Positions 3,764-3,947 of a DNA stretch of 64,000 nucleotides are shown in pieces (the first letter of the stretch is position 1; the number at the start of each line of letters is the position of its first letter). The notes beneath the pieces were generated by a model. That model was given only the letters and a program-made list of their open reading frames with translations, searched no databases and was not told the origin of the DNA. The stretch is from Clostridia bacterium (GTDB taxonomy: Bacteria > Bacillota > Clostridia > Christensenellales > UBA3700): contig JAIDRT010000011.1 of NCBI GenBank assembly GCA_029061605.1, positions 43,374 through 107,373 on the forward strand. The letters are read 5' to 3'. Made by a program: the position numbers and the translations under genes.

Positions 3764-3849
3764 AATCTTCACCTTTTAATAAATGTTAATGTCATTTCGA
3801 GCGCAGTCGAGAAATCTCATCCTTTTTTTAATCTGTTGAGATCTCTCCG
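3166..3849. repeat. Right copy of the 684-bp duplicated segment (pairs with 1-684)
   Basis: See the 1-684 entry. It covers codons 1-199 of the ABC gene, its RBS and ~85 bp of leader including one REP-like unit. Confidence 0.9.
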
Positions 3850-3947
3850 CTTTTATTCTGTCACCTTGAGCGTAGCCGAGAGGTCTAATCCTTTTGTCTT
3901 TATACTGTAGCGACATTTCGACTTCACTACGTTTCGCTCAAGGTGAC
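3791..3947. repeat. REP-like palindromic unit cluster (three units, two forming a long hairpin)
   Basis: Units are 3791-3822 GTCATTTCGAGCGCAGTCGAGAAATCTCATCC, 3860-3892 GTCACCTTGAGCGTAGCCGAGAGGTCTAATCC and 3910-3947 GCGACATTTCGACTTCACTACGTTTCGCTCAAGGTGAC. The arms GTCACCTTGAGCG (3860-3872) and CGCTCAAGGTGAC (3935-3947) are perfectly complementary. Confidence 0.85.

Follow-up and report, generated by a model that had tools for sequence, protein, structure and literature searches.

YGTC-tagged hairpin repeats in the intergenic DNA of a Clostridia bacterium: probable gene-less members of the Ssn-associated SRM/NTS class

The stretch of DNA analysed here (hereafter the window) comprises 64,000 nucleotides (64 kb) from a Clostridia bacterium (assembly GCA_029061605.1, contig JAIDRT010000011.1, positions 43,374 to 107,373 of the forward strand), and it carries a dispersed family of short palindromic units that lie between its genes. 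The gene map was drawn from open reading frames (ORFs) and Pfam matches, with the start of the methionyl-tRNA synthetase (MetRS) gene corrected to ~63463 from homologues, and its content, with ecfA-ecfA-ecfT-truA, metG-tatD-ksgA and a gene for PFOR (pyruvate:ferredoxin oxidoreductase), is indicative of Firmicutes. About 24 units could be identified, a density of approximately one per 2.7 kb, and repeat finding grouped them into families D2, D3, D5, D6 and D8. A dispersed palindromic family of this kind had been proposed previously from inspection of the sequence (the original prediction), and the consensus given at that time, allowing up to three mismatches, matches the window six times against 0.01 matches expected by chance. 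We built a covariance model (CM) from 12 window units and ran it without filters; it recovered the seeds and eight further non-seed units at E<=0.1, with no match inside genes at E<0.9. The family is confirmed as real and non-random. When Rfam was searched with both gathering and E-value thresholds, only tRNA-Glu passed gathering and no unit was matched at E<=10, and a literature search for literal core strings of the units returned primer coincidences only.

The units are 28-38 nt long and oriented, with the general form YGTC-[A+4 nt]-GA-SC-loop-G(N)S-GA-[4 nt+T]-C. On the tag strand, Y-GTC leads into a 5-nt arm that opens with A and continues with four bases that are mostly pyrimidines; GA, S, C and the loop follow, and the 3' half runs G, S' (with one optional base between them), GA, the arm complementary to the first and C-T-M. 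The loop of the short form is GNA and that of the long form has ~13 nt (for example, GAAACGNAGTGNA). The tag reads TGTC in 11 of the 24 units and CGTC in nine (20 of 24 together); in alignment A1 its G and T are invariant and its C reaches 90% conservation or more. Of the 24 units, 22 have A-T as their first stem pair; the second pair is T-A or C-G, a C stands directly 3' of the 3' arm in 20 units and the 3-nt unpaired tail is CTC or CTA. The stem thus described contains five Watson-Crick pairs, two G·A pairs and two more pairs, closed by a loop of 3 nt with a bulge or of ~13 nt, and the conserved GA/GA dinucleotides separate the outer stem from the two inner pairs.

Within the 12 window units, 95% of the alignment cells assigned to the stem are paired and five of seven pairs show compensatory double changes. 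None of 500 shuffles equalled the observed covariation score, and partners slid out of register paired in only 32-52% of cases. A larger set of 107 distinct units, drawn from the window as well as from relatives and from unrelated phyla, was 98% paired with six of seven pairs compensatory, although this alignment had been fitted to the model and is biased towards structure. Tandem G·A/A·G pairs and a GNA loop are possible on the tag strand only, the opposite strand having C/T mismatches at these positions. The units are therefore predicted, from the aligned sequences, to fold into a hairpin as single-stranded DNA of the tag strand. Predicted fold energies ranged from -1 to -4 kcal/mol for DNA and from -2.5 to -8.5 kcal/mol for RNA; thermodynamic support for the hairpin was dropped, as z-scores were about zero under both DNA and RNA parameters. 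Nearest-neighbour energy tables do not model tandem G·A pairs or GNA loops. Because folding energies give no support, the hairpin assignment is based on covariation and on what is known of G·A and GNA motifs. DNA mini-hairpins of the type GCGNAGC and GNA triloops are extraordinarily stable (reviewed in PMC13037366), and the core of the window units, C-GNA-G with flanking G/C, has the same loop motif; unlike these mini-hairpins, most window copies contain an extra T (GCGNAGTC) and are assigned a weak fold by standard energy tables. Hammerhead ribozymes, K-turns, integron attC sites and CRISPR repeats were considered and rejected, as the units lack their defining cores and Rfam, in which those of them that are ribozymes or RNAs are represented, gave no match. 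A fixed left/right asymmetry, with a 5' unit of GACC type and a 3' unit of GAGC type, was also considered, but the counts were mixed and no claim is made.

Near the left end of the window, the plus-strand short form at 626-653 (GTCATTTCGAGCGCAGTTGAGAAATCTC, tag TGTC; CM score 46.1 bits) has a head-to-head (HH, tags outward) partner on the minus strand at 673-700 (short form of GACC..GTGG type, tag CGTC; 44.9 bits), followed by a degenerate minus-strand long form of family D2 at 709-747 (GCCATCTCGACTTGAACGAAGTGAAATGAAGAAAATCTA) that was missed by the CM. A second cluster begins at 3791-3818 with a plus-strand short form that duplicates the unit at 626 (47.8 bits), and continues with a truncated minus-strand copy of the 673 type at 3837-3858 (GAGATCTCTCCGCTTTTATTCT, seen directly in the sequence), a plus-strand short form at 3860-3887 (arms ACCTT/GAGGT; 45.6 bits) and its HH partner, a minus-strand long form with the 13-nt loop GAAACGTAGTGAA, at 3910-3947 (24.2 bits, E 8e-4). 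Units 626 and 3791 are not independent insertions, since both lie within one segmental duplication (95% identical, 1-~700 versus 3166-~3850). This duplication covers the 5' end of a gene for an ABC-ATPase/FtsX-permease fusion together with the adjoining units, and its downstream copy holds the truncated unit at 3837-3858.

Two minus-strand long forms lie at 17292-17329 (arms ATTCT/AGAAT; 32.8 bits) and 17363-17400 (GACC..GTGG type; 35.8 bits), and an HH pair is formed by a plus-strand long form at 25006-25043 (34.5 bits) and a minus-strand short form at 25068-25095 (42.7 bits). Four units follow one another from 34736 onwards: a near-perfect palindrome of the short form at 34736-34763 (plus, GTCACCTC...GAGGTGAC; 39.0 bits), a degenerate copy at 34779-34807 (minus, GTCACTCTGAGCGTAGCGTAAGCGGCGTC; missed by the CM), a short form at 34839-34866 (plus, arms ACCCT/AGGGG; 37.5 bits) and a shortened palindromic copy at 34892-34917 (plus, GTCATTTTGAGCACAGTCGAAATGAC; 20.1 bits, E 0.009), which was also flagged as terminator-like. 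The long form at 40661-40698 (minus, arms ATATT/AATAT; 17.1 bits, E 0.05) and the short form at 40769-40796 (plus, 3' half degenerate; 38.6 bits) come next, then a degenerate plus-strand copy with an intact 5' half at 42430-42457 (missed by the CM) and a weak, degenerate minus-strand candidate with tag CGTT at 48758-48786 (12 bits, E ~1). Between two convergent genes, the plus-strand short form at 50459-50486 (45.4 bits) and the minus-strand short form of GACC..GTGG type at 50510-50537 (44.2 bits) make another HH pair. The remaining units are the long form at 52577-52614 (minus; 18.9 bits), the short form at 56653-56680 (plus; 47.9 bits), a long form with tag TGTT at 60055-60092 (minus; 23.5 bits, E 0.001) and a short form upstream of metG at 63553-63580 (plus; 38.0 bits).

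Compared with the coordinates listed originally, 24 units were found in the expected positions or no more than a few bases away, two starts being moved (40667 to 40661 and 60050 to 60055); the entries at 17410, 24972 and 48955 correspond to short partial matches only. What had been taken for a fragment at 63568 is a full unit (63553-63580), and the fragments placed at 15092-15235 reduce to one degenerate unit-like stretch at 15122-15148 (minus), which has no proper tag, was found by a structural scan with one mismatch, has no CM match and is a weak candidate. This region lies downstream of tRNA-Glu (15331-15405, minus) and contains, besides the unit-like stretch, two partial direct repeats (CATCGGGAA...GCTACGCTC) not recognized by the CM. 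As had been stated, the 13-nt arms (3860-3872 and 3935-3947) complement each other without a mismatch. Long hairpins between paired units, also suggested at that time, apply to the pair 3860/3910 only, most pairs being hetero-dimers with different arms.

Non-coding DNA accounts for 11.0% of the window and contains 24 of 24 units (P ~1e-23 when each unit is counted; 3.5e-13 when the 13 gaps are counted once each), in agreement with the previous claim that the units lie outside coding sequences. The accompanying statement that nearly every long gap is occupied was too strong, given that units occur in 11 of the 23 gaps of at least 100 nt. By gene orientation, occupied gaps of this length include none of four divergent, three of four convergent and eight of 15 unidirectional ones. 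Neighbouring units form five tag-outward (HH), four tandem (head-to-tail) and two tag-inward (tail-to-tail) pairs. Such placement would also fit a role mainly at the RNA level, in which the units serve as 3'-end hairpins acting as intrinsic terminators or mRNA stabilisers, as some Escherichia coli repetitive extragenic palindromes (REPs) do. The units lie downstream of ORFs in unidirectional or convergent gaps and never in divergent ones, a few G·T pairs are present in the stems, three copies end in a ATCCTTTT tail and two units are terminator-like. However, the overlap with terminator-like sequences is limited to these two of 24 units, the units face either way with respect to the adjoining gene, and tandem G·A pairs and the GNA loop can be formed by one strand only. 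Predicted RNA stability (-2.5 to -8.5 kcal/mol) is no better than that of shuffles (z -0.8 to +1.6), and separate strong canonical terminators are found in the same gaps (24922-24947 and 40637-40609) or in an unoccupied one (56136-56165). In addition, the Neisseria nuclease SsnA, whose hairpin motif is compared with the window units below, does not bind the RNA form of that motif (PMC11893778). Given the weak predicted stability and the canonical terminators nearby, the terminator or mRNA-stabiliser role raised in the original prediction is not supported, and we regard an RNA-level function as unlikely.

Other genomes were then considered for the distribution of the units. A scan of species-representative genomes with GTCANNNNGAGCGNAGTCGAGNNNNTCT returned at least 120 loci. 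Among the matches listed, Flavobacteriia were the majority, together with other Bacteroidota, Verrucomicrobiota, Planctomycetota, Ignavibacteriota, Acidobacteriota, Omnitrophica, Saccharibacteria, Anaerolineales and several metagenome-assembled genomes (MAGs) of Firmicutes. A few high-GC matches to the pattern (L003, L012, Actinobacteria) had non-complementary arms, appeared chance-like and were not used for the distribution. Flavobacterium loci contain arrays of two alternating unit types, resembling BIMEs (bacterial interspersed mosaic elements). In a Eubacteriales MAG (L009, 3046-3260), four units of the same orientation follow one another head-to-tail at a regular pitch of 61 nt and are not inverted dimers. 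Many spurious small ORFs in genome annotation are accounted for by units (for example, 6170-6364 of locus L065 in another genome).

Closer relatives of the window were represented by six contigs with MetRS 95, 90 and 84% identical; MetRS homologues at 84-96% identity are from Clostridia MAGs. Unit density in the six contigs is similar to that of the window and the occupied sites are partly different. In contig L121, whose flanks are ~86-91% identical, a 129-nt HH dimer lies between GNAT and tkt genes at a site that is empty in the window; where the window has its unit at 56653, L121 has an unrelated sequence of the same length, and the 52577 unit is shared (L121 20436-20478). The minus-strand ORF 56678-57583 stops with a TAG supplied by the CTA tail of unit 56653 (56678-56680), and the L121 version of this gene, where no unit is present, stops with TAA. 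At the unit upstream of metG, window 63545-63694 corresponds to L121 7209-9919, in which three extra genes (LysR-like, LysE and aminotransferase) are found; in place of this 2.7-kb three-gene segment, the window holds 149 nt with unit 63553 at the indel junction. Differences in occupancy between relatives, and HH dimers that resemble two inverted ends around a short spacer, are also what would be seen with classical miniature inverted-repeat transposable elements (MITEs), that is, deletion derivatives of insertion sequences (IS) with a DDE transposase, terminal inverted repeats and target-site duplications. At the site filled in L121 and empty in the window, the one site examined, there is no target-site duplication; many units are solo or paired in the same orientation, and the arms of dimers often differ. 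Moreover, no DDE transposase occurs in the window or beside units in related loci, and the features conserved by covariation are those of a folded hairpin and not of a linear inverted repeat. We thus regard a MITE origin as highly improbable.

A candidate partner gene came from loci fetched by the unit pattern alone. In two Flavobacterium loci, arrays of units enclose a conserved ORF of 110 aa encoding a GIY-YIG domain protein (PF01541, E 2.6e-19). An iterated hidden Markov model (HMM) search over all ORFs of the pattern-fetched loci revealed 12 small GIY-YIG ORFs, of which eight are no more than 130 nt away from a unit. Several of them, among Flavobacterium, Cytophagaceae, Phycisphaerae and Chthoniobacterales, are bracketed by units with tags outward; the order unit(+), 30-100 nt, gene, 0-40 nt, unit(-) was seen in four phyla. 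As a test in the reverse direction, the CM built from window units alone was run on 79 metagenomic loci whose sole selection criterion was a homologue of the GIY-YIG protein, with a two-sequence alignment as query. This gave 200 matches; 51 of the 79 loci contained a unit and 50 had one within 150 nt of the gene, with a plus-oriented unit just upstream in 34, a minus-oriented unit at or just after the stop in 42 and both in 32. Tandem G·A was retained in nearly all of these gene-flanking units, and ~40-50% had enlarged loops like the window long form.

The identity of the bracketed proteins was assigned through a gonococcal orthologue. A tblastn match in a Neisseria gonorrhoeae record is a 94-aa ORF that lies among seven copies of the motif NTS and has Y6, Y17 and E64, which are the residues mutated by Chenal et al. 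(PMC11893778). It shares 47% identity (E 5e-28) with the Berkelbacteria-type protein and 41% with the Flavobacterium protein. In Neisseria, NTS (CGTCATTCCCGCGMAVGCGGGAATCYRG) is associated with ssnA, a gene for a single-domain GIY-YIG protein of 94 aa, and its generalised form, SRM, flanks ssnA (PMC11893778). The GIY-YIG proteins bracketed by units are thus identified by homology as Ssn. Published analysis found an SRM near 71% of ssnA homologues and on both sides of 42% (Chenal et al., Nat Commun 2025, PMC11893778), and our independently obtained flank rates of 65% and 41% are in line with these values. The window CM also aligned collinearly to Neisseria NTS (15.9 bits, E 0.0027 in a 1.7-kb gonococcal locus). 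The C-terminus of Ssn, ...DLSTSLEMT and the stop after it, is commonly encoded by the 3' unit, which overlaps the end of the Ssn ORF in L130 (879-911), L127 (1255-1287) and L030 (351-382); many Ssn C-termini read ...LSTSLEMT because the hairpin unit itself encodes them. PDB and NCBIfam searches with an Ssn-like protein gave no matches, and matches to Ssn in PLSDB and phage sequences came from rhizobia, Neisseria and cyanobacteria. The PLSDB entry with the gonococcal 94-aa ORF (L206, NZ_CP119140.1, 1881563-1883241) is a 2.17-Mb N. gonorrhoeae chromosome filed as a plasmid, in which the ssnA orthologue is unannotated.

SsnA recognizes its hairpin solely in single-stranded DNA, and on one of the two strands only; the cut falls a few nucleotides upstream of the tag. 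Cleavage depends on the three bases that precede the palindrome, binding depends most on the C that follows it, and the loop is dispensable (PMC11893778). The window units share with NTS/SRM the oriented hairpin, the unpaired (C/T)GTC tag, the A-T then T-A start of the stem, the C directly after the palindrome and a loop that tolerates change or insertion; in both, copies are mostly intergenic (hundreds for NTS/SRM), and in genomes other than that of the window the motif class brackets ssn genes with tags outward. The tag and the C after the palindrome, conserved in the window units, are the positions found critical in that study. Where NTS/SRM has three G:C pairs and a 4-nt loop, the inner stem of the window units combines a tandem G·A/A·G with 2 bp and carries a triloop of GNA type as well as a 1-nt bulge, and their outer stem is only 5 bp long; the host also differs, belonging to a Gram-positive-type Clostridia lineage, and no ssn gene is present in the 64 kb. 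The published SRM search string, which is an operational tool and not a biological definition, was found near one of the 79 Ssn loci, versus 50 of 79 for the window CM, and the two sets of matches do not overlap. It misses the window units because the tandem G·A breaks its S and B positions. Since the string misses these units and tandem G·A is kept near Ssn genes, the window family is a distinct sub-class within a known kind.

The same units can be placed within the super-family of CGTC-tagged REPs, which have a CGTC/TGTC tag, a stem starting with A-T then T-A and a 3-nt tail (Di Nocera, De Gregorio and Rocco, 2013, PMC3733652). These REPs form HH dimers, often hetero-dimers, with spacers of 20-100 nt, and lie between unidirectional or convergent ORFs; they are explicitly without an associated transposase and do not flank tyrosine transposase genes; members include Neisseria dRS3 and Rickettsia RPE-4 and RPE-6, and the hosts are Proteobacteria, Chlorobi, Bacteroidetes, Spirochaetes and Thermotogae, with Firmicutes not listed (PMC3733652). 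The window units agree with them in tag, first pair, tail position, dimer habit, placement and the lack of a linked transposase. Published families have a terminal CGTC (or TGTC/CCTC) tag, a fully paired stem of 8-9 bp, a loop of 4-5 nt and a CCA tail (PMC3733652), whereas in the window G·A pairs interrupt the stem, the loop has 3 or ~13 nt and the tail reads CTC or CTA. The window units form a variant that falls outside the four published CGTC REP families. As to whether the units belong to an already catalogued family, a question that came with the original prediction, their kind is known (CGTC REP, PMC3733652; NTS/SRM, PMC11893778) and the variant form is new.

It had been proposed that a REP-associated tyrosine transposase (RAYT) might be the partner, in which case the units would be REP/REPIN elements mobilised by a RAYT (an IS200-like Y1 HUH enzyme) encoded elsewhere in the genome. 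RAYTs are associated with GTAG-tagged REPs. There is a real general likeness to REP/REPIN-RAYT systems and BIMEs of gamma-proteobacteria: all are short tagged hairpins with a single-strand logic, present in high copy in intergenic DNA and often as inverted doublets; the single small nuclease gene flanked by its own repeats is REPtron-like, and alternating arrays in Flavobacterium (L065 and L002) are BIME-like. The window tag is YGTC and not GTAG, however, and the gene bracketed in ~200 related loci encodes a GIY-YIG hydrolase, in contrast to the Y1 HUH transposase of RAYT systems, which works through a covalent intermediate. CGTC REPs have been found not to flank tyrosine transposase genes (PMC3733652). 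In the window itself, Pfam scans detected no Y1_Tnp domain, and neither a transposase nor a GIY-YIG protein was found by Pfam analysis of 47 ORFs and an HMM scan, in keeping with the earlier remark that no transposase accompanies the repeats. With a YGTC tag here and a GIY-YIG (Ssn) partner in other genomes, a RAYT is not supported as the partner, and its involvement seems very doubtful.

On the basis of these results, we consider that the units most probably represent an SRM/NTS-class (CGTC-tagged REP) hairpin family, and that the window copies are gene-less derivatives of unit-ssn-unit elements served by Ssn in trans. A full-length element consists of unit(+)-ssn-unit(-) with tags facing outward; an IS-like NTS-ssnA-NTS layout was noted by Chenal et al., who proposed domestication (PMC11893778). 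The solo units and HH dimers of the window would most likely be gene-less derivatives of such elements, spread and rearranged between genes by an Ssn that works in trans and is encoded at another place in the genome. Such a scheme implies an Ssn that is both present and active in this Clostridia genome, and that cutting by the nuclease would lead to copying, presumably via break-induced recombination or repair. A host benefit is possible, such as the restriction of incoming single-stranded DNA; in N. meningitidis, the Ssn system reduces transformation by NTS-bearing DNA (PMC11893778).

Several results weigh against this interpretation. Neither the window, nor 126 kb from the six related Clostridia contigs, nor ~38 kb from five other unit-bearing Firmicutes loci contained an ssn or GIY-YIG gene. 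Ssn is a hydrolase, and we know of no member of the system for which a copying mechanism has been demonstrated. Nearest-neighbour folding gives the units no stability beyond that of shuffles (z ~0; RNA z -0.8 to +1.6). At the single filled (L121) and empty (window) site, there are an extra 20 and 41 nt of flanking sequence and no target duplication; no transposition chemistry could be read from it. Finally, the published SRM string HGTCWYN(0-2)YYVSBRHN(0-5)WNVSBRGN(0-2)RNCYNB has no match in the window (0.18 in shuffles). Among homologues of the best-matching Ssn (L130), Clostridia proteins were not found, the closest coming from Berkelbacteria, other members of the candidate phyla radiation (CPR) and Anaerolineae. 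Because no Ssn gene was seen in the Clostridia lineage, a partner there is unproven, and it is action in trans that we infer. It should be noted that 19% of SRM-rich genomes are without Ssn (PMC11893778).

Some other features of the window were observed. A second repeat family of ~77 nt, with copies 78% identical at 40705-40762 and 42458-42515 and a partial one at 34699-34725, contains the twin hairpins CCCCTTGAGGGG and CCGCCATAGGCGG; it adjoins Ssn-type units, is flanked by two of them at 40661-40796 and was absent from all other fetched loci. Two giant minus-strand ORFs, at 4116-8828 and 35034-40346, encode 1570 and 1770 aa, respectively, and have no Pfam match at E<=1e-5. Within the first (4116-8828), repeats with a 9-nt period (family D4) occupy 4224-4452.

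CGTC-tagged REPs have been catalogued since 2013; Ssn, the GIY-YIG nuclease that partners them, was recognized in 2025. Our data extend the class to uncultured gut-type Clostridia and reveal a tandem G·A/GNA sub-class that flanks Ssn genes in many phyla and escapes the published string. Because the string misses this sub-class, published counts of SRM genomes and of Ssn with a cognate motif are probably underestimates. The tandem G·A/GNA form might even constitute a large unrecognised branch of Ssn motifs, with an Ssn clade of its own in Patescibacteria (CPR), Bacteroidota and the PVC phyla, and orphaned or served in trans in gut Clostridia, a suggestion we put forward tentatively and at somewhat less than even confidence. 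If this were true, a nuclease that reads a non-Watson-Crick stem would represent a new recognition mode with new single-strand cutting specificities. Each motif-nuclease pair of this sub-class is a candidate for a new site-specific cutter of single-stranded DNA, an application highlighted by the authors who described Ssn.

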